From assembly GCA_012295275.1 (NCBI GenBank), contig CM022672.1, positions 124,001-188,000 on the forward strand: a stretch of DNA of 64,000 nucleotides, in the 5' to 3' direction. Both the position numbers and the translations under genes were made by a program. The DNA comes from Chrysomallon squamiferum. Its lineage: Eukaryota > Animalia > Mollusca. This document shows positions 1,371 through 35,655 of this stretch, piece after piece (position 1 is the stretch's first letter; each line of letters begins with the position of its first letter). A model generated the notes under the pieces. That model did not search any database and was not told the DNA's origin. It saw only the letters and a program-made list of their open reading frames with translations.

Positions 1371-1941
1371 GCCTTAAGCTCTAAAAACTGCCTTTTCATA
1401 ACTTGAATTACTGGCAAGATCACTAGCAGTCACCTAGATCAAGTTATGTTATGAATTCTCATAATTACAATGATGGGTGGTTGTCACTTCCAGAAAAAAG
1501 CCAGCTATAGCAATTGATATATCAGAATGAAGAGATACGTTGTAAACAATAAATCCTAAAATATACATTATCGTAATTTATAGATCTGAATGAAATTCAT
1601 TTTTCTTTTCTCTGATATACATACTCTATTATGCATTAAAAAAAAGTAATAATAATAATTTAGTTGACTTGCTATCAAATTTTTCATTACTAACATTATT
1701 TTGTTTTGTTTCATTTTTTTCTTGCAAAAGAAAATGTTATTTAGAACTAAACAGGTGATCACATTTATTGAATTTATAAATAAAATATTTTGTTAGGCCC
1801 TTGACAGTATTTGTGTGTGTGTGTGTGTGTGATTGGTTTTTTTTAATTATTATTTCTTTTTTATTATTTTATACAAGATATTTTATTTAAATTTTAATTT
1901 AAAAAAAATATTTCTCTTCCAGATTTTTGTTGAAATATACA

Positions 1942-2545
1942 ATGGATAAACAATATTCAGTGAAATTCTTTACATCGTTTGTTGAAGCAATGCAGAAATT
2001 TTGTCGAGAATATATAGAATTTGATCAGTGTGTTGAGCTGAGTGGTTATCTGGCAGTTGAGATAGATAATCATAAAAAAGAAAGATATGTATTAAGTGAA
2101 ATGTTGCAGAGTTCAGGAAATGTTATTAGTGAAAGCTACTGTACAAAAGCTTTCAAGACACTGCGCAAAGAACCCTCAGTTTCAAGAGGTAGTGAAAATA
2201 TTGGACCCCGAACTACGCAAGCGCATCCTGAAGAGGTAACCATTGTTTTGCGTGACAGCCCTGAAATGGTATCTCATGTGAACACACAGAGGCATCAGAG
2301 GTTTTCTAATCAACGATCCAGTACTTTCAGTCATTCACAGAGAGGTTATTCTTCTGGTCATACAAGAGAAATAATTAAGCTAGGAAATCCTTTTGATCAA
2401 CAAGTTAGACATACTCCAAATCAGATACAGCCTCGCTCGTTAGATTCATCATCAAGAAATAATTCATCATTTTCACCTTCATCAGCTCAAAAACGTCCAG
2501 GCAGTGAGTTAAATCACCAACAAGAATCACCTGCAGCTAAAAAAG
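1942..2545 (+). CDS. Common coding exon 1 of the multi-isoform transcription-factor gene: ~75-aa N-terminal globular domain (not BTB) followed by an S/Q/R-rich disordered region
   Basis: Acceptor ttctcttccag ends at 1922 (exon starts 1923, so an upstream UTR exon is implied); ATG 1942, MDKQYSVKFFTSFVEAMQKFCREYIEFDQCVELSGYLAVEIDN...; donor AAG|gtaagt after 2545, phase 1. Confidence 0.85.
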
Positions 2546-4102: not shown

Positions 4103-4467
4103 ATAAATGCGATTCAGTAACTTCCATACTGGCTGATCCAAGAAATGTTTATTCAGGTGATACAAGTGAATCACAACAGATAGCAGCATCTACAATACCA
4201 TTTTCATCACAATCCACTTCACAGAACACAGGTGAAAGTATTCGTTTGCCACTTTCAGCTACAGTGAAGGAAGAAGGCATAAGTTCAGTGATAACATTAG
4301 AAACCTCTGATAACACAGAGGAACATACAACAGAAAGTGACATTGGTGATAACTTGCAAGAAACTATGTCACTTGGTTTGGATGCTTCAGCAAATTATTC
4401 TAATAGTTCACAAAGTGGAATTGATGAAAATTCAGCATCATCTTCAGCCTATATATCACAGTTCAAG
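4103..4467 (+). CDS. Common coding exon 2 (acidic/Ser-Thr-rich linker, VKEE SUMO-consensus motif), ending in the shared phase-0 donor
   Basis: Acceptor ttttttctgcag ends at 4102; phase-1 join keeps the frame open (DKCDSVTSILADPRN...ATVKEEG...AYISQFK); donor AAG|gtaaat after 4467. Confidence 0.85.
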
Positions 4468-10949: not shown

Positions 10950-11138
10950 TGGCACAGACGCCCTTACCGTTCTGCATACAGCCTTAAGGATATTGATATG
11001 GCTGTCAGCCTTGTTGTCAACAAGCAGGCAAACTTGAGTACTGCCAGCAAGATCAGCGGTGTTCCAATAGCCACACTCCATAGACATGTGAGGCGGAGAA
11101 TCAAAATAAATGAAAAAAAACAAAAAACATTGACATAA
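10950..11138 (+). CDS. Alternative terminal exon P1: pipsqueak-type (HTH_psq/CENP-B N-like) helix-turn-helix; absent from the ORF track
   Basis: ctgtttcag| then phase 0: WHRRPYRSAYSLKDIDMAVSLVVNKQANLSTASKISGVPIATLHRHVRRRIKINEKKQKTLT*; matches the psq pattern YS..D...A...V....S...A....GVP..TL. Confidence 0.8.
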   Translation, partial: WHRRPYRSAYSLKDIDMAVSLVVNKQANLSTASKISGVPIATLHRHVRRRIKINEKKQKTLT

Positions 11139-13990
11139 CAAAATAACTAATATGAGTGACAAATGTTAATGTTTTCCAAATCCATTATCTACAATAACTG
11201 GTGCTTTTAACATATAATTGAATAAAATGAAGATTTGGTTACAGATGTACCAAAGTACTCTGTGATTTCAGTTAATAACACTTAAAATACTTTTGTATGG
11301 ATAGCAAAATCTTCATTTTGAGCAAAGTTGATATTTAACTATGTGGGAGAAAAGAAACATGAAAATCTGTCTTAATACAGAATAAGTTTTTTACAATCAT
11401 CTCAGTTAATAGGCCTCTGTGTGATCTTCAATAATAACATTTAAAGACAGATACATATGTAATGAATGCTATGTACAATGGAACCTGACTAAACCAGATC
11501 ATCATGGGATTGTAAAATGTATTTGATTTGAAAGGAGATCCAGCAGGATCAGGATTTTCAGTTTGTAAGGATTTTATAAATACTGTTATTACTTTTGTTG
11601 GGAAAACTCAGAAATCAGAATTGACCATAATATTCCAATATATCCAAAACCTCGGTGTTAACAAGTGAATTAGTTTTAACCATGAAGCTATAATGTATAA
11701 AAGAACAGCAATTTGCTGTTGTGTATTTCTTTTGAGAACCATTGCTATTTAAGTTCATTAAGTTATTTAGAGATACTGAACAAATTTCCATTTCCTTTCA
11801 TGTCATATGCTTTCATAAAATATTTCCTGTACTCCATGATTTCAAATCAGTAGAGGTATTTCACATTCCAAGTGCATGTGCCCATTGCTGTAATTAATGA
11901 ATTGTGCAAATATTTATAATGTCTAAACTGTTTGAATCATAAGTATACATGTATGTACTCTAGGTATAAGCATGCTAAATTAGATTATTTTTTGTTTATG
12001 GAAGTATATTTTGTTTATATACATAAGGTCAGGTATTGAGATGACTGTGGCTAATGAATCCATTTGTTTTTACAGCAGTGTATATCAGTGTATATAAATG
12101 AAAATTATCACTTTGTAATAAAACAGTAAATTGACAAATTACCCAATAAAACAGAAAGTTATGGCCCTGCTGATTCAGATTTTTATAATGACTGGCTTAC
12201 AGTTTTATTTTGGTCTCATGCTCAAATACCAAATATTACCATTATCAGACCAATACATCAGAGCCTAAGAATTTTGATATTTTTAGTCAAAACTTGTATA
12301 GCCTCTGATCTTTATAACCCATTATCTCAGCTACCAATGACCAAATGTTAATAATGTTGATGTTGCTGGAAAGAAAATTCCATAAGTAATCCAGATCAGC
12401 ATTTATTTATTATTTGTTATTTTTACTTTTTATTTTATTTATTTATTTATATATTTATTTATTATTTATCATAGAACCATTTCAAAGGGTCATAATCTTT
12501 TGATGTTTTGTTTCACCTTGTATTCAAACTTGTGGATCATATGCCCTTGGACTGACCTTTAGTCAGAATTTTAGTGTAATGTTTTAGTAAAAACACATTA
12601 AAAAATCTAAGATATAACATGTTTTATTAGTCTAATACACAAGGTGTGTATAACTGAGGCATAACTGTATATTTTACACATGCAGAACATTGTTAAATGT
12701 ATATTGGATACATCATTTATCATATACCCACTTCATGCATATATCTTCAGTGCAGTATCCAATCAAAGTATGATAATAAAAGCCCTATTTCCAAAAGTAC
12801 CAAATGAAAATAATATTTGATTTTGTGGCATTTGAGATCAAAACAAATATTTACCAACTTCTATGAAATTCTTAATTGGTGAATTGATCCAATACACTTA
12901 ATAACCACCAGGAAGTGTTCTTAATTTATTGGAAGATGCTAGGTGCAAAACAACATTGTCAGTTTGTATGCCTAGGTCTGTCATATTTGTTTGATTTCAA
13001 ACCAATTTTATCTTCTGTTGTTGCATTTTTAGAGGTTAACTTGTTAGTTTTGACCATAATGTTTTTATGCAGAAAATCTGTCTAGTTTCCATAATAAAAT
13101 TTATTCAGTGGTTTAATGCATTAGAGCAGTTATTTGTTGAGAAGAGTGATTGTTCATGTGAACTACTTGTTTTCAGTTTATAATTTCAAGCATTAAATTA
13201 ATTTTGGGATCAACATAAAAGAATCCGAGTTAAAACATTTTCATAAAATGTTTTTTTATGAACAGATTCTGTTTATTTAGTATTTTATATACATTTATTT
13301 GAATTGTATCTGTGTCATTCCTTTGGCGTTTATGCTTATTGATAGTTTTTAGTTGTAGCTATTGAAAGAAAAAATCAACAGTTCTGATACAGTCATTGGT
13401 TATGTCAGATTGTCTAGATAAAACACCATACAAAATAAAAAATTAAAATACTCCAAAAGCATTTATTTTTATTTTTGTTTATTTTTATTTATTTTTATTT
13501 ATTTTTTATTTATTGTAAGTTAAAGAAAAAGAATTATTAGTAAAACAAATATAGATATTTTGCAGAAGTGACTGGTCAGCCATTTTGTTTGTCATCAGTA
13601 TAGCGAAAGGTGTCCTGCTTTTCAAGTGTTTCTGTATAAGATGTCAAGTTATATCAAGATTTCACAAAATAAAATGAATAAAAAAATAAACAGAATGAAA
13701 CAAGCATTGTGATGGCATGTAATAGATGAATGAATGAACGAACAAAATTAACGTGCTAATCAGAGCTAGCTGTTGTAAAGCACGTATGTAATAGATTTTT
13801 ATATCCTGTTTTTATTATGTCCTCAAAAGTCACACAAGGATGAAGATCTTTTTAATCATAGTCATTTTTACTCAGTAATTTGTCGTGAGTTCAACAAAAC
13901 AGCATTTTTAGATAAGTTTTTTTTTATGGTTAAGTCAGGGACAAGCTCAACAATTACTTGTTACAACTGATTGTTTTTCATACCTTTCAG

Positions 13991-14185
13991 AGCACACCTG
14001 TTGGATATCGCCGATCATTCAGAAACTATAGTCAAGAACAAATCAACTTTGGTATTCAGCTTGTTTCTCTTGAACACTGTAGTCTGTGTAAAGCCAGCAA
14101 GGTCTGTGGTGTTCCAAAAGCCACTCTGTTTAGGATTCTCCGACGAAGGAAAAATATAGAAGCACAGAGACTAGACACATTTTAA
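13991..14185 (+). CDS. Alternative terminal exon P2: pipsqueak-type helix-turn-helix
   Basis: cctttcag| phase 0: STPVGYRRSFRNYSQEQINFGIQLVSLEHCSLCKASKVCGVPKATLFRILRRRK...*. Confidence 0.8.
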   Translation, partial: STPVGYRRSFRNYSQEQINFGIQLVSLEHCSLCKASKVCGVPKATLFRILRRRKNIEAQRLDTF

Positions 14186-15427: not shown

Positions 15428-15634
15428 GTTATCAAATCCAGTTCAGCCACAATAAAATATAGGTGTGAAGTGTGTGGAAAGGAGTCTGTCGGCAAGTCTA
15501 ATTATCGACATCATATGGAGAAACACAACTTGTCAAGATTTCCTTGTTTGCACTGTGGCAAAAGTTACTCATTTCAATCTGCTTTGAGTCGACATCTAAA
15601 AACATGTCCTGTTAAACAACTTGCATTTAAATAA
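15428..15634 (+). CDS. Alternative terminal exon Z1: C2H2 + C2HC zinc-finger pair
   Basis: tattttcag| phase 0; CEVC..HMEKH / CLHC..HLKTC; stop TAA. Confidence 0.88.
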   Translation, partial: VIKSSSATIKYRCEVCGKESVGKSNYRHHMEKHNLSRFPCLHCGKSYSFQSALSRHLKTCPVKQLAFK

Positions 15635-15890
15635 CCTTCAATGATGTGCATCAGCTAGACATGTTCATTCACAAAGGATCTAGTTGAACATCAGTGGCCT
15701 GGATTTGTGTGTCTTCAGAGAAACAAAACAAGATAAAACTGAAAATGAGGAAATACATTTTTTTAAAATTACTTTATATATACATCCACTGTAGAAAGTT
15801 TCAAACTTTATACATGGTTAAATGGTGTGTTTTGTATTGTTTCAAACTTAACACCTCGGAGGTCTGTAAAATTGTCCTCTATACTTTCAG

Positions 15891-16094
15891 GTGAATTTCT
15901 CTTCCAGTGCTTCTCTGTCTGCAGATGGCTTAACCTGCAAGATATGTGGAGTGGAAGTTCATAGCCAGGTATACCTACGTCAGCACATGGAGAAACATAG
16001 TGCCACCCGTTTCCCATGTAGATTCTGTGGACGCAGTTACTCATTCAAATCATCTCTCAGGAGACACAAACATTCATGTTCTCAAAGATTTTAG
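15891..16094 (+). CDS. Alternative terminal exon Z2: C2H2 + C2HC pair
   Basis: tactttcag| phase 0; CKIC..HMEKH / CRFC..HKHSC. Confidence 0.88.
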   Translation: MNFSSSASLSADGLTCKICGVEVHSQVYLRQHMEKHSATRFPCRFCGRSYSFKSSLRRHKHSCSQRF

Positions 16095-16497
16095 ATTGTA
16101 CATTTTCTAGAAACCATTCCTTCAGTGTTGTATTTAGATATTTTGGGATACATTAAGTGGAAATCTTCTGATGACATTGAGCTGACCATGAAGACTATTT
16201 CTGTTTCATCTACTATAATACTGTTTTGTCTGTGTATGGTGAAATAACTTTGAATTAGTTTCTGAATCAGGGTCATTTTTAATCCAAAACAACATTATTG
16301 TGGTTGTTAACACTGGGAATAATGTGGATTTTGTGCAAATATCAGTTGAACTGGGAGAACTCTTGTAAGAATTGATGGACTTGCTGCTCGAGTTAAATGA
16401 AAAATATGGAAAATAATTTATTGGCAGGCAGATCTATATCTCTGCTGATGGTGTGAGCAGGGATAGATGAGTAAAGGCATTTTTGTTGCATTTCCAG

Positions 16498-16704
16498 ATG
16501 AGGTGTTTACCAGCATCAGGGGATGCACACTGTATGTGTTCTGTATGTAACAAGACTTTCACATCTGTGTTTTATCTTCAACAGCACACGCAGAAGCATG
16601 ACCAGTGTCATCATCCCTGCCTTTTATATAGAAAGAGCTTAACTCTCAAATCAAGTCTCTACAAACATGTTAAAAATAGATGCCATATCAAAAAACAGTT
16701 ATAA
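16498..16704 (+). CDS. Alternative terminal exon Z3: C2H2 plus a degenerate second finger (CLLY; second Cys replaced by Tyr)
   Basis: catttccag| phase 0; CSVC..HTQKH / CLLYRKSLTLKSSLYKHVKNRC; frame open but possibly decaying. Confidence 0.7.
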   Translation: MRCLPASGDAHCMCSVCNKTFTSVFYLQQHTQKHDQCHHPCLLYRKSLTLKSSLYKHVKNRCHIKKQL

Positions 16705-16877
16705 GAAGATAACAAAAATATAAAAATTATTTCTTAGATATCTGAAGGAAATCATTTTTAAGTGATTTTATTTATTTTTCAAACGTTGTTAAATGTACAT
16801 TACTAAGATACATGTGTTGTCCTAAATAAACAAAGACAGCTACTTTGTTGTTTGAAATAAATTTATCTTCTTTTTAA

Positions 16878-16908
<31 letters not shown>

Positions 16909-17256
16909 TTTACTTATTTATTTTAGTTAGTTAGTTTGTTAGTTTTTAATTATCTCACTGTTACAAGTAATTCACCATTATTTTAGAAAAATGAAAATTC
17001 TCAATAGTTAAAATCTTTCTCTACAAGAGGACGCTGTTAAATTTCTTTTAAAAACATATGTATATATACTTATATATTAGCACATTCTTGCATGAGCACA
17101 CACACACATATACACACACACAAATGTAAATATCTGAAATGAGATGCTAATATTATTAGCAGATATGTGAAGTTACAACAGTGGATGGTTTAAACATGTT
17201 TCTGCTTAGTGGACACCTGAAGAGATGTTTATTAGTGCTTTATCATATATTTTCAG

Positions 17257-17472
17257 ATGACATCTATTCGTCATTCAAGTCTCAGCAGTACCAGTGAAAT
17301 TTGCCTCATTTGTAGCAAGACATTTGGATCAAGCACATATTTAAAAGAACATATGCAAAAACATAATGAACGAATGACCTGCAATTTCTGTGGAAAGAGC
17401 TATTCTTTTAAATCTGCTCTCAATCGGCACAAACGATCTTGTCATATCAAAAATTTCCCACTTTTGCAGTAG
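17257..17472 (+). CDS. Alternative terminal exon Z4: C2H2 + C2HC pair
   Basis: tattttcag| phase 0; CLIC..HMQKH / CNFC..HKRSC. Confidence 0.88.
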   Translation: MTSIRHSSLSSTSEICLICSKTFGSSTYLKEHMQKHNERMTCNFCGKSYSFKSALNRHKRSCHIKNFPLLQ

Positions 17473-18607
17473 TTAATGTGAACAATCATAGGGACACTGT
17501 AATAATGTTTAATTATTTGAACTTGTATTAAGACACAGAAATATTATATAATTATTTTTTTCCATTTATTCAAACTATTGTGAAATGTTTTTTACTTTTA
17601 CTTCAAGATATGGTACTCTGTGTGATGTAATCAGCAGTCATAATAATCTGTATTTACAAGCTGCAAAACTGCATATGCGTGTGTGAGTGTAAAATACTGA
17701 CATTCTATTTATATGCTTATTACACAACACCTGTATATACTACATATAATTCTGTGATCTTATCCTAGATGTCTTTTAAGGGCATAGTCTGATAATAGGA
17801 CTCAAAATATTTTATCTTCATGATAAAAAAAAAAATGATGATTTTTTTATTCTAAAATTATGGTGTATTTTTTAACACATTGATTGTATGGTCAGTATAT
17901 GTTAGTGGATCAGATATAACTGCATTACACAAATTTTATATTTTGCCCCAGAATTTCATGAACAAGTTTCTTTAAAATGTTATTTTTTAATTTATTTATT
18001 TATTTATTTATTTTTTCTGATCATTTACTGTTACTTATTTGATGTAAAGTATCAATAACAGAAATGACAGTGTTCAGTAGTTGATATAGAAATTGTGTTT
18101 GAAATAATATAAACATTCTACAAAAGTGTATGCTTAAAAATGTAAAACTTTTGAAAAATATTCATGAATGAAGTAAATAAATGACACAAAGATTCATTTT
18201 TCTTATTTAAAAACTATTTAAGAAGATAAGTAAATTTATTTAATTTTTGTATTTATCTTTATTTTCGAAATATAATTTTATTCTACAGCAATAATTGTGA
18301 ATGCTAAGAAAAATCGTAAGGTTGATTCTGTGGTAGATTATTTGAAAATAAACATATGGATACTTTGTATTGAAGCCTTACACCATCAGTTAATTGGTAG
18401 CTGAGTGACTCTGCAGATAGTGCACATAAGTGTTTGAATTAATGTGAAATATTTGTTCATCTTCTAACTTCTTCATATAAGGATAAATAAAACTATGGAA
18501 ACCATGGTAGCATGTTGCAGATAAAAACCGTGTTGGATGGAAGTTCGATGGCATGCTGCAGATCAGTGGATGCTGCACCATCTGATTGGTTATTCTTGTC
18601 ATTTCAG

Positions 18608-18880
18608 ATGGGTACAATTTTGAGTGTGTTGCCACCGGCAGGCACAACACAACAAGATGCCTCCACTCCAGCTGAGCTTGGTTTCAAGGCAACATTTTCT
18701 TGCTCTGTTTGTGGCAGACATTTTCCTGCAAGTGGTAATTTGCGACAACATATGGAAAAACACAACCAGGCTCGATATTCCTGTGAATTTTGTGGGAAAA
18801 GCTATACATTTAAATCTAATCTTTTCCGCCATAACAGATTTTGTCAGATAAAAGCTTATCACGAGAAGACTAACCTGTAG
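18608..18880 (+). CDS. Alternative terminal exon Z5: C2H2 + C2HC pair
   Basis: gtcatttcag| phase 0; CSVC..HMEKH / CEFC..HNRFC. Confidence 0.88.
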   Translation: MGTILSVLPPAGTTQQDASTPAELGFKATFSCSVCGRHFPASGNLRQHMEKHNQARYSCEFCGKSYTFKSNLFRHNRFCQIKAYHEKTNL

Positions 18881-19027
18881 GTGGAAGAAAAACTAGCTTT
18901 TTTGAAAACACTGAACAATTGCTCTTTTGTTTTTGTGCATGGAATCCCAATGACAAACAAGAAGTGAAAATATTTTTATTTTAAACTTAGAAATGTCATT
19001 TACAGAGGCTTGTTTTTGTACTTTCAG

Positions 19028-19234
19028 GCTAATCTCACTCCAGCTATGGCTAACTATTCCTGTCTTACTTGTGGAAAATGCTTCAGTGAGAAGCTGTATT
19101 TACAACAGCATATGGACATGCACCGGGAAACTAAGTTCCCCTGCCCCTATTGTGGCAGAACTTATACCTTTAGATCAAATGTTTGTAGACATGCCAAAAC
19201 CTGTCCTCAAAGGCCAAACATAGGAGGAAATTAA
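19028..19234 (+). CDS. Alternative terminal exon Z6: C2H2 + C2HC pair
   Basis: tactttcag| phase 0; CLTC..HMDMH / CPYC..HAKTC. Confidence 0.88.
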   Translation, partial: ANLTPAMANYSCLTCGKCFSEKLYLQQHMDMHRETKFPCPYCGRTYTFRSNVCRHAKTCPQRPNIGGN

Positions 19235-19389
19235 TAATAAGGGAATTGGAGAGGATTTCTTCTACGTCACTGATCACATACGATTTCTTAAACCAAACCT
19301 CAAGATTTTCATTTTTAAAAAATTGGGGTTGCAGTTAGAATGGCCCAGTGCAGTTATTTGATATAGTATATATTTGTATGTACTTTCAG

Positions 19390-19573
19390 ATGGCAATACT
19401 GTCAAGACAAACATTTTACTGCTGTTTGTGAAAAAACCTTCAGTGAATATTGCTATCTCAGACAACATGAAGAAACACACAAGACTGAGTGATTCGCATA
19501 TCAATTTTGTGGTCTTTTTTCATTGAAGTCAAATCTGTGTCGCCACATAAAACATTGCAAACACATTAAGTAA
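19390..19573 (+). pseudogene. Pseudo-exon of the zinc-finger array
   Basis: tactttcag|ATG..., frameshift in the first CxxC, then CEKTFSEYCYLRQHEETHKTE*FAYQFCG..LKSNLCRHIKHC with an internal TGA and a Cys->Tyr change. Confidence 0.85.
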
Positions 19574-20214
19574 ACAGTATATTTTGTGCAACAACAATAT
19601 ACTACAATAGATATGTGTGTAACTGTCACACCACAATCAATTGTATATATATGTGTAATAGTTATACAGCACATTAAATAAATAGTGTATCAGTGTACAC
19701 CATATTCAAACTGTGTTGTGTGTAATGATATTGCACCATATTAAACAAAGTTATACTGCTTGTAATAATTTTAAACCACATTAACAAACTCTGTAATGTT
19801 TACATTAAATAAATTTGATTGTGACAGTTGTGTGAATTGAAGGAATGTGAACTGGACTTCTAATGAAATTTGAAAGAATATTTAAATAAATAATAAAAGA
19901 GGTTATTTTATATTCACTGTTTTCTGTCTAAATAAAAAAAAATTAAGCATAATATATACACAGAACTAACAAAAATATGTTTGATACTACAGTGAATAGC
20001 AAAACAAATATATGCTCTAGTAATTTTCATTAAATAGTGTTGCATGATCATTTCATTTATATGAAATGATGTGTAATGTCAGTATTGTTTAGTCATTACA
20101 TTATAGCTAGAATAAAAGGGAGGACAAAATACTAAACGGTGCCAACAACAAAAATCATTAGCTAAAAAACAGTTTCTGTTACCAGAAATCAGTTGCCTGT
20201 AGATCAGAATTGCG

Positions 20215-20256
<42 letters not shown>

Positions 20257-20382
20257 AACAAAAACAAATGAACACACACAAAAGTAAAATTTTATAGTTT
20301 TTAATTTTTTAGCTTTGTCACAAGTAAATTTGTTTTTATTTAAACTACATTGTCTTGGTTAAAGCTGTGTATTTATTTTCAG

Positions 20383-20607
20383 GTTGGCACAGAACTATTA
20401 TCCACATTTGCATCACAAAGGCTTACCTGTCCTATATGTGGGAAAACATTCAGTCAACGTGATTATTTAAAACAGCACATGCAGATACATAATAAATCCC
20501 GATTCCCATGTCAGTACTGTGGAAAAAGTTACTCATTCAAAACCAATTTGTGTAACCACCTTAAAATCTGTCGTGTCAAATTCCAGCAGTGGGATTCTAC
20601 AGAATGA
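20383..20607 (+). CDS. Alternative terminal exon Z7: C2H2 + C2HC pair
   Basis: ttattttcag| phase 0; CPIC..HMQIH / CQYC..HLKIC. Confidence 0.88.
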   Translation, partial: VGTELLSTFASQRLTCPICGKTFSQRDYLKQHMQIHNKSRFPCQYCGKSYSFKTNLCNHLKICRVKFQQWDSTE

Positions 20608-21883
20608 CAATGTAGGCTTTAATGTTAATACTCTATAATTTCAGTTTATTTCTTCTCAAGATACTTTATTATGAAAAATATTTATTTATTAACATAGATA
20701 GTTCTGTAGCTTGTTAATTAACTCTTTTGTTATTTTTATAATCTTAAATGTAAATCATAATTTCATTGCAAAACTAGACATAAAATTAAAGATTTTTTTT
20801 TAAAGAGATATAGAATTAGGAAGTCTCTTTAGAATGTTACAGAAATCTTATTAAATACATAAAACATTTGAAATGTCAAAAACTATTTCGTAGGTTCAGC
20901 TGTTCCACTTTTATTGTTTATATTGGTTAACTGCTGTTCATTTGACAGATAGCATCACTTGCATATATGTTGGGCCTTAATCAAGTTGAAAATTGAGAAA
21001 TGATATTATAGATCTATGATGGCACGCTGTATCTGCTGTACAGTGGAAAAAGTGGTTTTCAGTATAAATAGATGCTACTATCTGTTGAATGTTACACTCA
21101 TTTAAACTAGGACTGTTGAAATATTTTATTAAACTTCCATAGTTTTCTAAATTGATCTCATTGATCTGTTTCTTAGAAGAGAAAAAATCGATTTAATGCT
21201 AATTACTATTTATGGATGTTTCCAAACTTAACATTATTTCAGCTTTCAAGAAGTATATATTAGATTTCTCCAGAAAAAAAAAAATTAAATTTAAGAATAT
21301 ATCTATAAAAGAAAATAAGAAAAAAACACAATTGTTGAAAATGAATGATTTTTTAATGAAATTAAGATATTTCATAACATCACTATTATAAATACAAGTG
21401 TAAAAAAAACAGTAATTTATGTCTAGAGTAGATTATTATTTTTAAAACAGTTTTTTTTTTGTTGATGTTTTGTTTTTAAAGTTAAAATTATTGATTTCTG
21501 TAATTATTTCAAGGCATGTATTTATTAATTAATCACAGATGTTTATGGTTTTAATGGATTTTTCATACTGCTGCAGATTTACACAGGTGTAGAGGAAGTG
21601 TAATAAATTTGTCAAAATTGTTTCATTTAAAAACAGACAGTTGTTAATAACAGATCATAGTCATGTGCCATCATGTATTTGTAAACATTTGTTGGATGTG
21701 TATCTTTACAATTATTTTTTTTAAATCACAATTTTAGCATTTTAATAAAAGAGCCAGACTAAACATCATTGTTATATAATAACTAGTATTATGTTTGAAA
21801 CAAGAATTGTGATGTGCTGGATTCAGTGAATAGAAACAAGTTTATTCCACTCAACATTTTGTTAATATAATTGCCTATTTCAG

Positions 21884-22129
21884 ATGGGTAGGATGACATC
21901 TGACACTGGTGGCAGCCCAAGCAAATTGTCATGCCCTGTTTGTGGAAAGTTATTTGCAAAACGTCCTTACCTCAAACAACACATGGAAATACATAGCCGA
22001 TCCCGATTTACCTGCAATAAGTGTGGTCTACATTATTCTATGAAGTCTGCTCTCTGTAGGCATCAGAGGACATGTATAGTGAGGATGTCAGGTGGTGTGC
22101 CTAGCAGTGACAAATCAGAATTTAACTAA
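21884..22129 (+). CDS. Alternative terminal exon Z8: C2H2 + C2HC pair
   Basis: cctatttcag| phase 0; CPVC..HMEIH / CNKC..HQRTC. Confidence 0.88.
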   Translation: MGRMTSDTGGSPSKLSCPVCGKLFAKRPYLKQHMEIHSRSRFTCNKCGLHYSMKSALCRHQRTCIVRMSGGVPSSDKSEFN

Positions 22130-22166
22130 CTGCACACTAAAATGTTTGTGTTGTGTGTACTTTCAG

Positions 22167-22409
22167 GTGACATTACCAAACACAAACATTGAAGCGATGA
22201 CGTCTGTTGTGACGTTGTCGTCAGCTAGGCCTGTCATTTGTGCTACATGTGGACGCCAGTTTAGCAAGAGTCGGTACCTCAGACAACATATGGAGATTCA
22301 TAACAAGTCAAGATACCCATGTCACTACTGTGGCAAAAGTTACACCTTCAAATCTAATTTGTGTAACCACATGAAGATCTGTGAGGTCAGACTTAACTTA
22401 CCAAAATAA
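22167..22409 (+). CDS. Alternative terminal exon Z9: C2H2 + C2HC pair
   Basis: tactttcag| phase 0; CATC..HMEIH / CHYC..HMKIC. Confidence 0.88.
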   Translation: MTLPNTNIEAMTSVVTLSSARPVICATCGRQFSKSRYLRQHMEIHNKSRYPCHYCGKSYTFKSNLCNHMKICEVRLNLPK

Positions 22410-22589
22410 TCCTTGTCTTCGTTTCTAGGATTTGAAACACAAAATACCATGGAAAGTGTTTAATATTCCTGGAGTTATTTTCAGCAGACTTTTTCAAGTA
22501 ATAGTATCAGATCACTTTATGAAAGTTTTGTGCTGCAGAAATCAAGTGAATAACTAATTATCCTCACCGTATTTCTTCTGTTCTTTCAG

Positions 22590-22805
22590 AGGATGCCGAA
22601 CAATTCTATTGAACAGCCAGTTGCAGCACAGTGTCCAATTTGTGGCAGGCAATTTGCTGTCGCGCGGTATCTTCGACAACACTTGGAAGTGCACAGTCAG
22701 ACAAGATATGCTTGTTCAAATTGTGGTAGAAGCTATTCAATGAAATCTGCTCTAAGTCATCATTTAAAAGTTTGTCCTGGAATCCGTGCTGTCACTGGCA
22801 ATTGA
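22590..22805 (+). CDS. Alternative terminal exon Z10: C2H2 + C2HC pair
   Basis: ttctttcag|AGG ATG phase 0; CPIC..HLEVH / CSNC..HLKVC. Confidence 0.88.
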   Translation, partial: RMPNNSIEQPVAAQCPICGRQFAVARYLRQHLEVHSQTRYACSNCGRSYSMKSALSHHLKVCPGIRAVTGN

Positions 22806-24033
22806 TAAAATTACTCTTTGGATATTGCATATTTGTGGCAAAAATATTAGTTGAAAATAATTGACTGGAATCAAATTCCTTTATGAAAAGAGCATAATGA
22901 ACATAAAGGCAGATTGACAGAAAAATTAGATGGGTTTCTGCTTAACATAATTTTATGTTTTATTGTTTTTGAAAATCCATATGTGATGTTTTCAATACTG
23001 TTTAAGCTAATAACTTTTATTGTGTGTGTGTGTGTGTGCAAAAAGCTCTTTAACTTCAAAAGTGACGAGTAAATAATAGCTTTAGAAAATATTAAAAAGA
23101 ATTAAGTTAATTTCTTTTTGAAGAAACTTTTCTGGTGACAGTGATCATTCCAGCTAAAAAGAATGATTTACACCAGCATTTAAATTCATATTATTAGAAT
23201 TTTATTTAGTAATAGTAAATTATTAATTGTTACCGAGAAATTTACAGATACGCTTCCTAACATATAGATGTAGATGCAGGTGTGCAGACATGCACACATA
23301 TATTTGCCAGTTTGAAAATCAGTTCAACAAATGATCAAAATTCATCTGTAGCAAATGTATTCCAGTTGAAACAAATATTTTGGACATACATTTGAAATAA
23401 TGTGATTTTATTGTTTATAATATAGTTTATTTTTCTGGTCCTAAAATTGGCATTGACTTGTAGGCTGTGTTTGCTTTATGTTCAGTGGTATTTTAAAAAA
23501 ACTGTTATTAAGTTAAATGTTTAATGGTAACTCAGCTTTCCTAATTGTGACCTTTGAAAACTAGTATTACAAACATTACCTCCTAACAAATGGGTTTAAG
23601 ACCTGCCTAAACCAAAGACCTGATTCGTCATTCATTTTATCATTAATTTTACAGATTTTATTGTTGTAGATATTACATCTAATATTGTGGACATGGTTAT
23701 TCTCTAAACATGGATGCTATTTACAGAGTTACAAAAAAAAGTGTCTAATACTAAGACACAGAGTAACATTTTGGAACATCTAGTAGAAAGCGAGGTAAAA
23801 CTGCTTTCATTGTAAGCAAGACTGCAGTTCTTAAAGACAATTGTTATTATAACTAGCATTTCCACTATGATTGTAGCTGTTACTTTCATTACAAATGTGA
23901 CTAAAATATAAACATAGAGTAATGTGATTATGCACTTGTGGCAGTTGGCAACATACAATTGATGAGCAGATCTAATGACAACACAGTTAACTGGAAGACA
24001 GCAGAAAGTGATGTTTCATGTTGTGTTTTTCAG

Positions 24034-24234
24034 GTGGACATCACAGGAGAATATCTCAACTGTAAACTTTGTGGAAAACACTTCACTGAAAGTCGTTATC
24101 TCAGACAGCACATGGAGCTGCACAGTGATTCGCGATTTTCTTGCAGTTGCTGTGGCAAAACGTACACATTTAAATCTGGTTTGTCAAGGCATTCCAGACA
24201 TTGTAAAGGTATCAGAAGTGGAAAAAACTTCTGA
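24034..24234 (+). CDS. Alternative terminal exon Z11: C2H2 + C2HC pair
   Basis: gtttttcag| phase 0; CKLC..HMELH / CSCC..HSRHC. Confidence 0.88.
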   Translation: MDITGEYLNCKLCGKHFTESRYLRQHMELHSDSRFSCSCCGKTYTFKSGLSRHSRHCKGIRSGKNF

Positions 24235-24387
24235 AACCACTGCCAAATTACTAGTTAGCTAAGACATTGATGCACTACCAGCACAGAATATGTTTGGTTA
24301 TCATGACAAGTTGTAACAGAGGCTATTTGTCCTTTTTTTGTCTGCATGGTCATTCATGCTTGACAGTTTCATCTGCTATATTTTCAG

Positions 24388-24576
24388 ATGGGAACATCAT
24401 GGCATGCACTTGAGCCCTACCCATGCAGTATCTGTGGCAAAACGTTCAGCACTTACATGTACTTAAAACAACATATGCAGAAACACAACCAGTCAAGATT
24501 CCAGTGTACTTCGTGTGGAAAAAGTTACACCTTCAAGGCTGCCCTTTGTCGACACCAGAGGAATAAATGCCACTGA
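24388..24576 (+). CDS. Alternative terminal exon Z12: C2H2 + C2HC pair
   Basis: tattttcag| phase 0; CSIC..HMQKH / CTSC..HQRNKC. Confidence 0.88.
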   Translation: MGTSWHALEPYPCSICGKTFSTYMYLKQHMQKHNQSRFQCTSCGKSYTFKAALCRHQRNKCH

Positions 24577-26864
24577 TGTGGAATGTTTACATTTCCCACA
24601 CAACATAAGCTGTGTATGGCCACTGAACATTTTTGTTTCCTTTAATTGTAATTTTCCTTCAAAACAGTTAATATGTATTGCCACAGACAGTTAGTGCTCA
24701 TACAGACAGATTTTTTGAAATTGTAAATGAGATGAAATCTAGCTAAATAAATGTTCTGTTGTAATCTTTTAAACAGTTTGAGTATTTAACCTTGAATTTT
24801 TTTTGCAAAATTAACTGAATAATATCTGTTTGATATGTAAAGATATATAAAAATGGGTAAATACAGTTAATAATACTAACAGTAGATGTATTTAAAGTGT
24901 TACAGGCATGTCATTGGTAGAGAAATGGCTAGTACTAGAGCTAAAAAAAAAAATTTCCATGTTAACCTTCATTCAGAATAAGACCCTTGACCCTATTAAT
25001 GACAAATATCTTTTAAAAAATTTGCTCAGTTGTAATACAATTATCTGAAAACATTAATTTGTATATTGTAAGTGATAAGAAAAGCCATTTCACATAAAAA
25101 TATAGTTTGACTAATACCACAGAATATAAAACATTTTAATTGTTAAAAATAATCCATGTGGATAGACCATGATGAACTGGGGGAAAAAAATTAGATTCAG
25201 AAGAAAAATATTAATGTCCTTTGGTAATTATAGATTGTAATAAATGTCCTTTTTAGATAAATGATTAAAAACCAGCAGATAAGATTGGAAGATAACAGTA
25301 AAAGTAGTGGAAATGATAGCCTGTAATAAATATTACACCAGTATTAATGAAAACATTGTAGTTAAATCATTTATAAAGTAAAACGATAACGTCTACTGAT
25401 ATTATTATACATTTGCTACAGAAAATACTGAATTGAAAATACTGAATTAAAAAATGATTAGACTGATGTCTAGACAATAAATTATGATGTAGTATTGATT
25501 AGATAATTTATGTAGCTGATATGGTAATCTACTGCACTGGTACTTGCGTTATAACTGAACTAACTCCTGATAAATCTGTGGTGATGTATTACATGGTTCT
25601 TCTTTCTACATGACATTTGGTTGTAGAATAATACTACTGATTGTATTGTACTGAAAAAAGTAAAACAAGGAAGAAATATTTTATTAACACAAAATATATG
25701 TTTAAATATTCTGTTATGTAGTATTACATAACTAATGAGATATTTGTTTTCTTTATCAGAGAACCTCTGTATGCATCTTCCACTTCACAGGTTTGGTATT
25801 AGATAAATTGGTTAAAGGACACTTGCTGGAATGTGAAATTTCAGATACAGATTGCAGATTTCCATTTCAAAAATTCCAAACTCCAAAACTTACTTCAAGC
25901 CACTGAGACAATGACTGTTTTCAGATGGTTTTGCATACACAAACTTGGTTATTCATTTTCTCTGTCCTGAAATGTTGCTTTCATACAATTGCTGATAATG
26001 GTCACAACCTTTCAAAATGTCTTAAACTGCATAGCAAAATTTTTCTGTTTACAACAAATTCATTAAGAAAAGGCAAAATGTGCATCATATACATTTATGC
26101 AGACTTCTGCTTTTGACACTAAATCTAAACAAGTGAATTCAATTAGATTTCAGCACACATTAATAATGACCACTGTTTCTTAAGCCTTCAAAGAAGCATG
26201 ATCATTTCATCTGATGCAGAAGTCTAATTATGTGCCAGTTGCTGTCATTGTTTTTTTGTTCTGGAATTTACACCTGGTATTCAATGTAGAAATGGTGCCA
26301 GTTTGTGTTTATGTGTCATGAATTTCATTTTTAGACTTAGATCCCTTTGTTGAATTATTTCTGTAATTTTCATCAAACAAAATTTCAAAATCTAAAAATC
26401 TTCAAACTGTATTAACTGTTTGTATGCCTTTTATGACTGTTACAGTAGTCATAATTTTGAATTCTCTGCTACACTGGTCTCAACATTGACTTTCCTGTAT
26501 CGGTACAATTTCATCTTCTCTGCCCAGAGTGTTGCTATAATGTCACAGTTTTGACTGATCCTGGATCAGTAATTATTGCTATAATAATAATAATATTACA
26601 ATTTTTACTTCTCTTATGTCTGTAGTGACTGTTGTAGTTGTCACAATCCATCAGGTTGTAATGTACTGTTGAACTTTTCCATTGACCAGTACTCTGCTTG
26701 GGCGTTGTCTGCTTGTACTATAATTAAACAGCCTGCTGTTAGATACACAGTGTTAATGTACAATTAACAAATTATGGAACTGTAATGAAACAGTAAAAAT
26801 TGGGATAAATAGAGTTTACACTGGAGCTTAGTGATTGACAGTTTAATAATCATGAATTAGTATT

Positions 26865-27140
26865 GAATTAACTGACTTCTGACTAGTGGTATCATTATTT
26901 AGTAATGGTAATTGATTTCTTACTAGTGCTATCAAAAGTTAGTATTGTGTTAATTGATTTCTTTCTAGTTATATCATGAGGTAGTGTTGTTTTGATTTTT
27001 TACTGGTTATATCAAAAGTTACTGTAGTGTTAATTCATTTCTTACTAGTGCTATCATTAGTTAGTGTTCTTTCATTTATTACTAGTGGTATCCTTAGTGT
27101 TGTGTTCATTCATTTCTTACTAGTGCTGTCATTAGTTAAC
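26865..27140. repeat. Degenerate tandem repeat (tttcttactagtgctatca..ttagt..tgt unit) just upstream of exon Z13
   Basis: Recurrent actagtg[g/c]tatca motif with variable spacing. Confidence 0.65.
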
Positions 27141-27169
27141 TGATTAGTAGGTGCTGTTTGTATTTTCAG

Positions 27170-27382
27170 ACGGGTGGCAGCAGACCAAGGGACCTGTCAT
27201 GTTCAGTGTGTGGAAAAGAATTCCCAAGTTCACTGAAATACAATTACCAGAATTTGAAACAACACATGCAGAAACACAGCAATTCCAGATTTGTTTGTCC
27301 TATGTGTGGCAAGAGCTACCTCTTCAAACCATCTTTATTTCGACACCAGAAACTTTGTACTTACAGAAAAATGAAATTTTAG
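27170..27382 (+). CDS. Alternative terminal exon Z13: C2H2 with a 17-residue loop + C2HC
   Basis: tattttcag| phase 0; CSVC GKEFPSSLKYNYQNLKQ HMQKH / CPMC..HQKLC. Confidence 0.87.
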   Translation, partial: TGGSRPRDLSCSVCGKEFPSSLKYNYQNLKQHMQKHSNSRFVCPMCGKSYLFKPSLFRHQKLCTYRKMKF

Positions 27383-27537
27383 TATTTGGAGAGAATATTT
27401 CATATTGTTTTGTTTTGGTTGATTGGTATTGACTTTGAATCTCAGTGTAATGTTCAGGTAGATTCTGGTAGAAGGACTAAAGTATAGATCTGGGTAGATG
27501 AGGATATTTCTTCTTAATCAGTATTGTGTCTTTTCAG

Positions 27538-27756
27538 AAAGTTGCCTCCAGGAAAAAGGACTTGATTTGCACGATATGTGGCAAAGTTTTCCCCAGGTCA
27601 TTGACATACAATTACCAGAATTTGAAACAGCATATGCAGAAACACAGTGAAGGGGGATTTCCCTGTAAAATGTGTGGTAAAGTGTTTTCTTTCAAAACTG
27701 CGGCAAAGAGGCATGAGGAATTTGCCTGCCATTGGCACTCCATTCTACCCAGTTAG
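27538..27756 (+). CDS. Alternative terminal exon Z14: C2H2 with a 17-residue loop + C2HC
   Basis: tcttttcag| phase 0; CTIC GKVFPRSLTYNYQNLKQ HMQKH / CKMC..HEEFAC. Confidence 0.87.
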   Translation, partial: KVASRKKDLICTICGKVFPRSLTYNYQNLKQHMQKHSEGGFPCKMCGKVFSFKTAAKRHEEFACHWHSILPS

Positions 27757-28970
27757 TTCTTTATGAGAAAGAACAGACTGAAACAAACCACACAACTTAC
27801 TTCAGTTTATATCTCGTGAAACTGTTTTTTTAAACTGTACAACATAAAAAATTAAAAATAACATGTTTTATTCTTTTATGCTGCAGTTTGATTAAGAGTA
27901 AAATCATGTTCTGGAGCTGTGTGAATCACTGCATTAAAACTACTTCATTTATACATATGTACATCAGTATGTTATTAAAACTGTAGAATTACATAGTGTT
28001 TGTTCTATGTGCTATACAGCTTATAGGAATGTATATATATAGTAAACATTATGAAGTTCCACATTTGTAAAAAAAAAGCCATTAATACCACATACATTCT
28101 GTTCACATACATAAGACATGATTAAGAAATCATATATTTTTACAGGACAAATAATGTTAACTACCAATTATAACACAGGAGCAAATAAAATTATTCTACT
28201 GATTATAACTATACTGTATTATAATTAAACCAGAAGTCACAAGAAAATGTCAGTAATAATTAAGATTGTTAAGTCACCAAATAACAGTAAACTTTTAACT
28301 ATGAGAATAGAAAATAATTCTTTTGTTCCACTGTATGAAGTCAAATGTCTGCAGGAGGAATGGATATACCCAAGACAGCGGTGTCACAAATACAGTACCT
28401 TACTGAAGACAAAACATAAAATGAATGCCAGTCAGATCTTGAAACTTGATTTTCATGAACTGCAATAATTACTTTACTGTTGGTAGCATATGTGCATAAA
28501 TGAATGTACAAAAACACTCTTACACACTATTTTAAAACAAATTCCAAAATTATTATTATTATTATTTTTTTTTTTTGTACCCTGAATACTGCATGGAAAC
28601 AATGTAATTTCTGTTTATTTTACCCTGAATACTGTCTCACAAAGTATCTGATTTATATTAGCCTTACCCTGAATACTGTTCTGACAGTGTGTAATTTATA
28701 TTAACCTTACCCTGAATACTGATGTAATTTATAGAAGTTTGATTTTTTTTGGAATTGTTTTTTGGATTTTTTTTGGCTCTTGCTACACTATAGCTTGTCT
28801 TGAATTTATCTAAGTCACATGGTTTGTAAATCACTATCAGTGTGTTGATGTGACAACTGAAGTAACTAGCAGAGCTCAACTATATTGTTTGCTGAAGTAA
28901 CTGCAAAAAAAATGTTATTGAGAGAATAAACCCAAGAAAAATCCCAATGATTTCTGTTCTATTTTTTCAG

Positions 28971-29189
28971 ACCTACGAGAAGGGGTTGTTGAATCCAACT
29001 TCACAGTCTGTTGAATGTAATGTTTGTGGCAAGACATTCCCTGCATCAATAAACCTAAAACAGCATATGCAGAAGCACGACCAGCGTTATCCTTGCTTGC
29101 TGTGTGGTCTCAGTTTCTCTTTCAAATCTGCCCTCAAGAGACACCAGCAGAAGACTTGTCCAGCACGAAGCTCATTCCCACAGATGTAA
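28971..29189 (+). CDS. Alternative terminal exon Z15: C2H2 + C2HC pair
   Basis: attttttcag| phase 0; CNVC..HMQKH / CLLC..HQQKTC. Confidence 0.88.
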   Translation, partial: TYEKGLLNPTSQSVECNVCGKTFPASINLKQHMQKHDQRYPCLLCGLSFSFKSALKRHQQKTCPARSSFPQM

Positions 29190-30868
29190 GACTCAGTAGA
29201 ACTTGTGTTTCTAACAGTGCCAGTTTTTGTTCACTGGACGTTTATCTCGTGGGTTATGTGAGGATTTTCTTGTACACATTACTTTCTGTTCTTTGGATGA
29301 CTGTAAATGTAATTGTTGTTAAATCTTGATACGGCCTAGCATTTGAGAGAAAAATTTTCTCAGCTAAGCTGAATATTCCCATTCCTCATGTTTTTATTTG
29401 GATATACCTGCCTTGTATTTCATGTCTACTAGTGCAAGCAAATCTTGCCTATATGTTCTTAACATTATAGATAATTATAGTAACTATAATAAGTATTTTA
29501 CAAAATACCACATATTCTAAAGGTTATTTTTGTTGAACACATTTTTTATAAATCTTTGATGACCATTAGAAGTATTATTCTGATAATATGTCCCAGTGGT
29601 TTCATGTTTCTTATTTTCTTAAGAGACTATAATGCATTACCACAGCAAGTTCTGGTTGAGTCAACTTCATCTGAAAATGAAATCCTGGAATAGAATTAAA
29701 TTTGAAGCTTCTGTATGATGTGTTCAGTTTGTGGTGTGAATGTGTAGTGATTTTCATTGTTGTGTAGACTTGTATATTTGTGTTTTTGTTGTAGCCTGTG
29801 ATCAGTTTATATTGTGTACTAAAGTGGCAAACAGAAGATCTCTTCTGTAGAAGAGAATTTTGGAACATTAACTTGTGTTTGACGTTTTTTTCCTGTTTTA
29901 CTGATGACTGTTTAAAGATTTTTTTTTTTTGAACAAGAGAATATCTTTGCTGCAAAACATTGACCATACAACTATTGCTAATTAAAGTAGCATAAAAATA
30001 TAATGATAATGAACCAGTTAAAATATAATTATTAATGGATATAATTGCCAAAACAAATATAACAACTCGGTAGTAAGTTCAAATTAACTGTTTTTGAATT
30101 TATTTGTTTACTGCTGTTACTAGTAATTTCACTTGACTTACTTTACACTGTGTTCACTTCAGTGCTAATTTCAATTTGATAGTTGTAACTTGAATTTTCT
30201 GCATTTTCAAGGACTGAATCCCTGATAAAGATTTCCTGCATTCACCTTGGTACAATTTTGTGGGTGTGTGTGTGGAAGAAGATTACAGACTGTTGTGTGC
30301 ATGGAAGAAGATTACAGACTAGTACTCCATGTAGTATCAGTTGTTTAATGTTTTATAAAATTTTCTTCTTACAATTTATGGGGTGGGTGGAACAGTTCAA
30401 GTTCAAGATGAATAACTTCAGATGGCAATGAACCTTGCTGACAGGGTTTGTTTTACTTCTTAAAATATTACAAACCCCCACTCCCATTATTTTTACTTTG
30501 ATAATAAATACTGCGATTTATAAAGATTTATTTTTCAGTTATTATATTTGTTGCTTTAACATAACCATTTTTATATTATAATCTTTCTGAAAGCAGATAC
30601 AGAAAAATCCTAAATACTAATTAAAGATGTAATTAAAAATCATACAAAAATGATATTTCTGTGATATTTATATAACTGGAGCACATTACACTTTAAGACT
30701 ACTGTGATACACAATTTTGCACAGGAGTTGCTGTTTGCAGTATTGATGAAGATTCTGTTGATTGTGCTATTATAATTTCCATGGCATATCCAAAGTAGTT
30801 GCACCTGTTTATTTTAAGGCAGTGTTTTAATGGCAGTTCTAAAGTAGGTTCTACTCTGTTTGTTTCAG

Positions 30869-31072
30869 GTTAAAAGTGACAAGGGATTGGATTTGATGTG
30901 TCCTGTTTGTGACAGAGTGTTCCCTCCATCTAAACGAACATACATTTATCAGCACATGGAAAAACACAATGAGAGAGGCTACGTCTGTGAAACATGCAAT
31001 AAACGTTTTTCATTCAAGTCTTCACTAAAACGACACATTCAGAAATTCTGTATATCAAAAATGTTTAATTGA
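30869..31072 (+). CDS. Alternative terminal exon Z16: C2H2 with a 14-residue loop + C2HC
   Basis: ttgtttcag| phase 0; CPVC DRVFPPSKRTYIYQ HMEKH / CETC..HIQKFC. Confidence 0.87.
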   Translation, partial: VKSDKGLDLMCPVCDRVFPPSKRTYIYQHMEKHNERGYVCETCNKRFSFKSSLKRHIQKFCISKMFN

Positions 31073-31407
31073 GTCATTTTTGGTAACAGTCTGTTTTACT
31101 ACAAATGTAAACTATTCCTATCATGTTCAATAGTATTTTTCTGTAAAATCAAGAACTAGGAAAGTTTGAGATAGTACAGACATTTATGTTCAAATTGGAA
31201 ATTGGTTTGTGAAGTAGCTTTATCCCTTTTCAGTTTTCAACAGCTAATTTATCTTCATAAATTAATTATTTCAAATGATCTCTGAAATTCAATAAATTTA
31301 TAGACCAAATAAGCATTATAATATTTCATAGTATATAGAGAAAGAACTATTGCAATGAATTAATCCATTTCTAAATTTATTTCAAGCTGATGAACCCTCC
31401 ATCTAAC

Positions 31408-31980
31408 ATGCTTAGCAAGAAAAGGTTTTTCAAGACATTGATGAAGAGGGCCAGATGACTTTTTACTGACAGTTGTAGGCCTTAGTTAAAAACAAATAAA
31501 ATAAAAAGGAGACACTAATAATTATTATTTGATAGTGAGAGGGAGGTGCTGAGAAAAATACTTTATATAGTTTTTTCAATTTTAATTTTTTTTTTTGATA
31601 TGTGTCTGGAAGAGGCATTCTACAATGAATTCTGTTCTTGATTAAATACAAAATAACAGTTACTAAATAGCTCATTCTGTGTCAAATCAGCCCCCACATT
31701 TTAATCTCACCATCTTATATTTTTCTGAAATTTGGTACAACATAGCATAACTAGCACAGATCTTAACTGGTGCAGTAGTTTTGAAGTTTTAAAGAGCCCT
31801 GAAATTTTGGAATTGTGCTTCTAAAATGGATGTGAACACCACTTTTAATACCATTCTATTTTTGTAAACACTAGATTTTTAATAACTGAAAGCTAATTTG
31901 ATAAAGATTCCAAATCTGTCATTAATTTCTTTTTGGATAAATTCATCAATGTCTTGAAAAACCTTTTCTTGCTTAGCATT
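31408..31980. repeat. ~35-bp inverted repeat pair about 500 bp apart (possible MITE ends)
   Basis: gcaagaaaaggttttttcaagacattgatgaa (~31415-31445) versus ttcatcaatgtcttgaaaaaccttttcttgc (~31942-31972). Confidence 0.65.
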
Positions 31981-34304: not shown

Positions 34305-34505
34305 GTGGATAGGCAGGTGGAAGTGCTGACCTGCAGTGTTTGTAGGAAGGAGTTTCCAGCTATATTCAATCTGAAACAACACATGCAGAAACACTGTGAA
34401 GCCAAGTTTCCATGTATCTTGTGTGGAAAACTGTTTTCTTTCAAAGCTGCTGCAAAAAGACACATGCTAAAATACTGTAGTTTCCGATCTCAGTTGTTCA
34501 GTTAG
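34305..34505 (+). CDS. Alternative terminal exon Z17: C2H2 + C2HC pair
   Basis: ttactttcag| phase 0; CSVC..HMQKH / CILC..HMLKYC. Confidence 0.88.
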   Translation: MDRQVEVLTCSVCRKEFPAIFNLKQHMQKHCEAKFPCILCGKLFSFKAAAKRHMLKYCSFRSQLFS

Positions 34506-35460: not shown

Positions 35461-35655
35461 GAGACTTCTACTCATGGCAGCTTTGTGTGTTCTCTGTGTG
35501 CCAAACTATTCCCTGCCATTTATAACTTAAAACAACATATGCAGAAGCACAGCCAGTTGGGATTCTCCTGTGTTTTATGTCATGCAAACTTCAGATTTAA
35601 ATCTAGTCTCCATCGTCACCAAAAAGCAACCTGTCCATTCCGTATAAAACACTAG
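35461..35655 (+). CDS. Alternative terminal exon Z18: C2H2 + C2HC pair; absent from the ORF track
   Basis: tgtatttcag| phase 0: ETSTHGSFVCSLCAKLFPAIYNLKQHMQKHSQLGFSCVLCHANFRFKSSLHRHQKATCPFRIKH*. Confidence 0.88.
   Translation, partial: ETSTHGSFVCSLCAKLFPAIYNLKQHMQKHSQLGFSCVLCHANFRFKSSLHRHQKATCPFRIKH

Follow-up and report, generated by a model that had tools for sequence, protein, structure and literature searches.

A gene of Chrysomallon squamiferum predicted to join a constant front to interchangeable pipsqueak-type and zinc-finger tails

The closest described counterparts of the gene analysed here are the fly loci lola and mod(mdg4). According to passages of PMC11426971, both join a constant front to one of 20–30 alternative C-terminal DNA-binding or interaction domains, with 20 isoforms for lola and 30 or more for mod(mdg4). 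The same passages describe tails of one or two zinc fingers and report trans-splicing at both loci. They also state that the Tramtrack-type (TTK-type) BTB domain, which is part of this layout in flies, is not found in Mollusca. Different folds may be mixed within one such locus, as mod(mdg4) carries mostly FLYWCH tails and one BEN isoform, according to part of PMC5094011.

A second point of comparison is provided by factors with the pipsqueak (psq) type of HTH, namely insect Psq, Bab and E93 and vertebrate LCoR/LCORL. The protein PALI1 lacks this HTH through alternative last exons. It is an additional product of the LCOR locus, as stated in a portion of PMC9122586. The third group consists of transposon-derived factors such as CENP-B, ZBED, HTH-Psq and KIAA1958; the last of these has two alternative last exons with DUF3504, a domain derived from Crypton elements according to passages of PMC3212892.

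Here we describe a gene within a 64,000-nucleotide stretch of the C. squamiferum genome (contig CM022672.1, positions 124,001 to 188,000; hereafter, the window). It resembles lola and mod(mdg4) in having a constant front followed by a large set of alternative tails, many of which are pairs of zinc fingers. The fly layout being already known, what is new is its occurrence on an unrelated, unnamed mollusc scaffold. The head of the C. squamiferum protein has no BTB domain, which places the gene outside the Tramtrack-group BTB family. For the same region, a comparison with insect BTB-psq proteins had been drawn in an earlier note made from the sequence alone; as the head has no Pfam match, the gene is not of that type. 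In contrast to lola and mod(mdg4), the mollusc layout is repeated across many paralogous loci, and the tails of the family span C2H2, psq, BEN, Tc5/CENP-B, BED and DUF3504. Unlike in Psq, Bab, E93 and LCoR/LCORL, psq is interchangeable here with zinc fingers, and each isoform has a single divergent psq that scores below the Pfam cut-off and is attached to an unrelated head. As for transposon-derived factors, sister loci do carry CENP-B/Tc5, BED and DUF3504 tails, but no transposase context was found around the two psq exons of this gene. The lola/mod(mdg4) design probably arose twice in evolution, here on a domain that has no name. Outside arthropods, too, a single splicing decision can exchange DNA-binding folds of unrelated kinds while the scaffold stays the same.

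The literature that we searched, which excluded most subscription journals, holds no description of a multi-tail mollusc system. Isoform arrays are not mentioned in the passages of PMC10027918, a survey of transposon-derived factors in molluscs, that we considered, and its supplements gave no relevant match to three LOC ids of the family or to three short motifs of the head. Likewise, the main text of the Gigantopelta aegis genome paper (PMC7895826) does not mention a multi-isoform system in the portion consulted. The isoforms themselves are already present in RefSeq, without a name.

A shared front and an array of last exons

All features of the gene lie on the plus strand of the window. The first shared coding exon (1923..2545, +) has its ATG at 1942; residues 1–72 make up the conserved head domain, and the remainder is a low-complexity linker. 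The second (4103..4467, +) encodes a linker rich in Ser/Thr and acidic residues and has a phase-0 donor at its 3′ end. From the ATG at 1942 to the donor at 4467 there are 323 codons. Pfam searches returned no family at E≤10 for either exon. Contigs from four RNA runs (X1–X4) of one study were aligned to positions 1101–14400. The 2545|4103 joint is present in all four runs, and contigs reach 1923 from an upstream exon that lies beyond the aligned stretch.

Behind the single donor at 4467 there are 21 intact single-exon tails, all of which have a TT[T/C]CAG acceptor and are in phase 0. The first two are the psq exons, which agrees with the order given in the earlier note. The other 19 (15428..36602, +) each encode a pair made up of a C2H2 and a C2HC-type finger, and Pfam zf-C2H2 was found in both of the two that were scanned. 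Their acceptors are at 15428, 15891, 16498, 17257, 18608, 19028, 20383, 21884, 22167, 22590, 24034, 24388, 27170, 27538, 28971, 30869, 34305, 35461 and 36429 (+). Between 4468 and 42200, a TT[T/C]CAG acceptor is followed by a phase-0 ORF of at least 55 aa in 22 of 64 cases on the plus strand, but on the minus strand in 1 of 38. Of these 22 plus-strand ORFs, 21 encode a psq or zinc-finger domain; the exception, at 25925, has no domain and was excluded from the tail count. No tail was seen on the minus strand.

Two further stretches may extend the array. One is a zinc-finger last exon in another phase (40769..41011, +) and the other a zinc-finger coding stretch with an uncertain acceptor (41907..42128, +). 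Both contain Pfam zf-C2H2 and, in tblastn, are 73% identical to isoforms X2 and X1, respectively, of the G. aegis ortholog. There is also a decayed zinc-finger exon (19390..19570, +), which retains its TTTCAG acceptor but has a broken frame. Searching the 64-kb window by tblastn with nine non-zinc-finger tails of the family revealed no additional tail type. The hexamers AATAAA and ATTAAA are absent from 8 of the 21 gaps between tails, and the neighbouring tails concerned would therefore use a common 3′ end. A satellite-like repeat, both tandem and inverted, occupies 37900–39700 within the array region. Farther downstream, 60005–60442 and 61433–61654 (+) are exon-like frames of a different gene, without a Pfam match.

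We consider it highly probable that the gene consists of the two shared coding exons and the array of alternative last exons. The proposed mechanism is a mutually exclusive choice of last exon, in which one donor would be joined to one of many acceptors, with one of two psq HTHs or one of at least 19 zinc-finger pairs as the outcome. Every tail is presumably used in C. squamiferum, and the choice may be set by splice acceptors and poly(A) sites that compete within one long pre-mRNA. Splicing of the 323-residue constant front to one tail at a time likely yields a set of transcription regulators. Judging by their domain types, the tails would bind DNA. By analogy with the Tramtrack-type BTB in flies, the head may recruit partners or self-associate, and such association would compensate for the few base pairs that one HTH or one pair of fingers can contact. 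Our confidence in the design as a whole, a constant front with swappable psq and zinc-finger tails, is likewise high.

The two pipsqueak-type exons

The psq exons span 10950..11138 (+; 62 aa) and 13991..14185 (+; 64 aa). Both follow TTTCAG and run in frame 0 to a stop, which bears out their earlier description as phase-0, acceptor-led last exons. Their likeness was also correctly noted: the two peptides are 40% identical and align with a score of 98, whereas the maximum for shuffled sequences was 51 (n=2000). At the nucleotide level, the exons have in common a 32-nt stretch with 87.5% identity.

The top Pfam family for both exons is HTH_psq (PF05225), as the pattern recognized earlier would predict, but neither exon 10950 (E 9e-4, 19.3 bits) nor exon 13991 (E 3.5e-3, 17.5 bits) reaches the gathering cut-off of 20.4 bits. 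The psq tail of the G. aegis ortholog, at 15.2 bits, is below the cut-off as well, while 9 of 11 psq tails scanned from paralogs, together with that of G. aegis protein P0166, are above it. We also searched the window with a profile made of 15 psq tails of paralogous loci, from which these exons and their orthologs had been left out. The two exons ranked as the top two of 1438 six-frame segments, with E-values of 8e-8 and 9e-6; the third-ranked segment had 0.68. With the Pfam and paralog profiles alike, exon 10950 outscores exon 13991. When both peptides were used to search a database, 173 candidates were obtained, none with E≤0.01.

Among solved structures, the best relative of each peptide by sequence is human LCoR (2cob), which is detected with E 1.6e-4 when a profile of both exons is used. 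An AlphaFold model, made for the 13991 peptide, has three helices (residues 15–27, 32–39 and 43–63) and a pLDDT of 82.5. LCoR is the top match of this model, with weak scores, both in Foldseek (E 0.05) and in VIA-align (Z 5.7, rmsd 4.8, 57 aligned residues), where it ties with other HTH and Myb domains. Sequence comparison thus confirms that exons 10950 and 13991 encode predicted pipsqueak-type HTH domains. In a tree of family tails, the two exons and the ortholog form a group of their own with support 97/97, subject to a long-branch warning. The pair likely arose by a single local duplication that predates the split from G. aegis.

Is the splicing of these exons visible in RNA? In run X3 we found a 4467|13991 joint with GT..AG borders at a depth of 23.1 (one of four runs). 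Its contig aligns at 92% likeness and has 27 letters on the short side, a length at which joints are often false; the joint falls exactly on both predicted splice sites. Moreover, contigs of the shared exon end at 4467 (runs X1 and X3) or 4469 (run X4), as expected of a fork, and in run X2 such a contig continues into the intron past 4467. No 4467|10950 joint was present in the contigs of any of the four runs, so that of the two spliced joints expected from the earlier reading one was observed directly and the other was not. Contigs of runs X1 and X2 pass the acceptor at 10950 unspliced, and one of run X3 starts exactly at 10950 and runs past the stop into the 3′ region. As a sign of splicing this start is a hint only; a simple merge would be expected at 10948. 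Introns are covered at lower depth, which points to pre-mRNA or DNA carry-over in the RNA runs. Other joints in the contigs did not have GT..AG borders and were taken as repeat artefacts.

The ortholog in G. aegis, LOC121384253, allows an independent comparison. Its head is identical to that of C. squamiferum at 75 of 77 positions, and the linkers are 64–72% identical. The two LOC121384253 clusters have 19 members, of which we compared 18, all of them automatic RefSeq models. Each of the 18 departs from the others at the position corresponding to the donor at 4467; 16 have zinc-finger tails, one (X17) a psq tail and one (X19) a truncated psq tail. The tail of X17 is the second psq tail, identical to exon 13991 at 49 of 55 positions (89%). 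Isoform X19, the only RefSeq model there on the first psq acceptor, opens with the first psq tail, identical to exon 10950 at 26 of 29 positions (90%). From there, an internal donor leads to the acceptor of the second psq exon in a different frame, and the recognition helix is lost. The psq tails are thus more conserved than the shared linker. Eleven finger exons of the window pair one-to-one with G. aegis isoform tails at 68–90% identity, a count that omits five ortholog proteins because they are chained forms, have an unclear partner or use an intermediate exon. Together with the 4467|13991 joint, these psq and zinc-finger isoforms on a common front support the earlier proposal that splice choice switches the class of DNA-binding domain.

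Several side observations concern the forms that do not follow the simple pattern. Exon 10950 has an internal GT at 11038, the point where G. aegis X19 splices onward. In G. aegis X3 and X4, a portion of the 18608-type exon is linked to finger exons farther down the array, and X2 reaches its 40769-type finger exon via an intermediate exon. No counterpart of the intermediate exon of X1 and X2 was found in the 64-kb window.

Alternative readings and the origin of the psq exons

Could exon 10950 be minor or regulatory, either retained or spliced onward out of frame, with 13991 alone providing the real psq isoform? The unseen 4467|10950 joint, the unspliced contigs of runs X1 and X2, the conservation of the internal donor used by X19 and the long end branch of this exon in the tail tree are all in line with this idea. 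On the other hand, its frame is intact through the whole HTH, its profile scores beat those of exon 13991, its first 29 residues are 90% conserved, and the run X3 contig that begins at 10950 continues beyond the stop codon. We regard such a minor role as improbable. Still less expected is the possibility that the two psq exons are relics without expression, or that they belong to another gene. Their sub-threshold Pfam scores and the peptide search, which gave no further homolog, would fit, but the exons have no start-codon context of their own, their phase matches the donor, exon 13991 takes part in an RNA joint, and both are present in G. aegis isoforms with 89–90% conservation. This reading is largely refuted and has next to no standing. 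The tails might instead reside on transcripts of their own and be joined to the front by trans-splicing, the mode used by the two fly genes. The precedent of trans-splicing at both fly loci of such a layout (described in passages of PMC11426971) and the RNA cover spread across the region upstream of the tails speak for it. However, every tail lies downstream of the donor on the same strand, so that cis-splicing suffices, and we consider trans-splicing quite improbable, slightly more so than a minor role for exon 10950. The cis choice of one last exon remains the preferred reading.

The origin of the psq exons is a separate matter. The earlier note had suggested that they might derive from captured transposase domains, in which case both would have been taken directly from pogo/CENP-B-type transposases inserted in the first long intron. 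Some observations are compatible with this. Passages of PMC10027918 describe psq domains as pogo-derived and expanded in molluscs. At sister loci of G. aegis, the tail of protein P0176 matches CENP-B over 5–129 (E 7e-12) and Pfam HTH_Tnp_Tc5 (E 3e-11), and in that of P0166 a psq domain precedes a weakly matching Tc5 HTH. Tc3 transposase and CENP-B do appear in the fold-search lists for the 13991 model, far down. Against direct capture, both psq frames end at a stop directly behind the HTH, and the second HTH (HTH_Tnp_Tc5) is absent; in the window, the tails of P0166 and P0176 had no tblastn match with an E-value below 1. The flanking repeats in 8000–15400, among the pairs listed (25 of 80), are AT-rich low-complexity sequence, with no convincing terminal repeat or DDE remnant, although old insertions would have decayed. 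LCoR, a host factor, ranks first by sequence and by fold. Finally, the psq pair and the ortholog form their own group, for which a single entry and a later duplication would suffice. The data thus do not demonstrate direct capture, and we judge it unlikely; an indirect origin is conceivable, given the transposase-type tails at sister loci.

Positions 1–620 (+) of the window contain what we take to be a degraded remnant of a Tc1/mariner-type DDE transposase, interrupted by stops. As it lies upstream of the gene, we rejected it as a source of the psq exons.

The head domain and its mollusc family

The model of the head domain, which has about 72 residues, covers 72 residues and consists of one helix and, behind it, long strands (pLDDT 82.5). 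Structure searches gave no usable match in the ESM Atlas and none at E≤0.001 in Foldseek; the best VIA-align hit among 48161 chains had Z 4.3, a score at which the fold can be called neither new nor known. A homodimer prediction run without an alignment scored 0.01 and speaks neither for nor against self-association. The FxLRWN motif of the BTB domain is missing from the head alignment.

Sequence searches with the head collected 111 proteins and, separately, 73 cluster representatives. One of the latter, P0187, a Chironomus repeat protein, was a false match that failed the head profile and was dropped. A search that started from a distant member added 280 proteins (120 among the matches listed). 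The head is N-terminal in 331 of 335 proteins that match it. RefSeq labels family members ‘uncharacterized’ or gives them unrelated zinc-finger names.

In G. aegis, 139 family proteins represent 20 distinct sequences over the first 150 residues and at least 15 LOC ids. The available records all refer to a sequence of 91,665,651 bases, which suggests that the family loci lie on one chromosome. Tails with psq occur in 5 of the 20 distinct fronts, and BEN, DUF3504 and Tc5/CENP-B tails in other front groups. Several loci combine BEN, DUF3504 or Tc5/CENP-B tails with zinc-finger tails, the last of which were called in this tally by a loose pattern.

The same head with many isoforms is also found in Aplysia (LOC101845285, up to X21), Biomphalaria (LOC106079054, X21) and Physella (LOC131934882, X37), and Bradybaena has a multi-isoform locus with one BED tail. 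Single head records come from Haliotis, Pomacea, Batillaria, Babylonia, Nucella and the bivalve Sinanodonta. No psq tail is among the heterobranch tails listed. A tree of the heads (41 rows, 72 columns) has little resolution, and psq-bearing loci do not cluster in it beyond shuffled labels (57 of 500 shuffles were as low); we therefore make no claim about the order of tail gains. The head subtype of this window occurs with DUF3504 in Haliotis (abalone), Pomacea (apple snail) and Sinanodonta (freshwater mussel), and this linkage is possibly the older state of the subtype.

Taken more broadly, these data lead us to propose, tentatively and with slightly less than even confidence, that a transcription factor system not described so far exists in molluscs, and perhaps in other spiralians too, as a counterpart of the fly Tramtrack-BTB genes on an entirely different scaffold. 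It would comprise 15 or more clustered genes on one chromosome, each with the unnamed head and an array of exchangeable last exons, a landing pad for tails and hundreds of specificities. If this is true, the landing pad takes many folds, several of them transposon-derived (psq, CENP-B/Tc5, BED and Crypton DUF3504), and hundreds of DNA-reading specificities combine via the head. Counts of mollusc transcription factors per gene would overlook the diversity held in isoform arrays. Such arrays also let DNA-binding exons be watched as they are born by duplication, lost (as at 19390) or recruited from transposons. Since isoform arrays on the same head occur in Aplysia, Biomphalaria and Lymnaea relatives, the proposal is testable in established snail models.

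Some family members show further variation. Tails without a Pfam match occur in G. aegis (P0007, P0014, P0051, P0064 and P0078) and Aplysia (P0232); some are basic and helical, and they may represent additional DNA-binding types. Two pairs of G. aegis isoform families, P0007/P0016 and P0018/P0050, are identical over exactly the first 78 residues and then diverge. From the sequences, this suggests a two-tier choice, in which one head exon would be joined to alternative middle exons, each with its own array. In G. aegis LOC121383032 and LOC121383526, the BEN domain itself is split: its first exon is common to the isoforms, and its C-terminal portion is encoded by one of several alternative exons.
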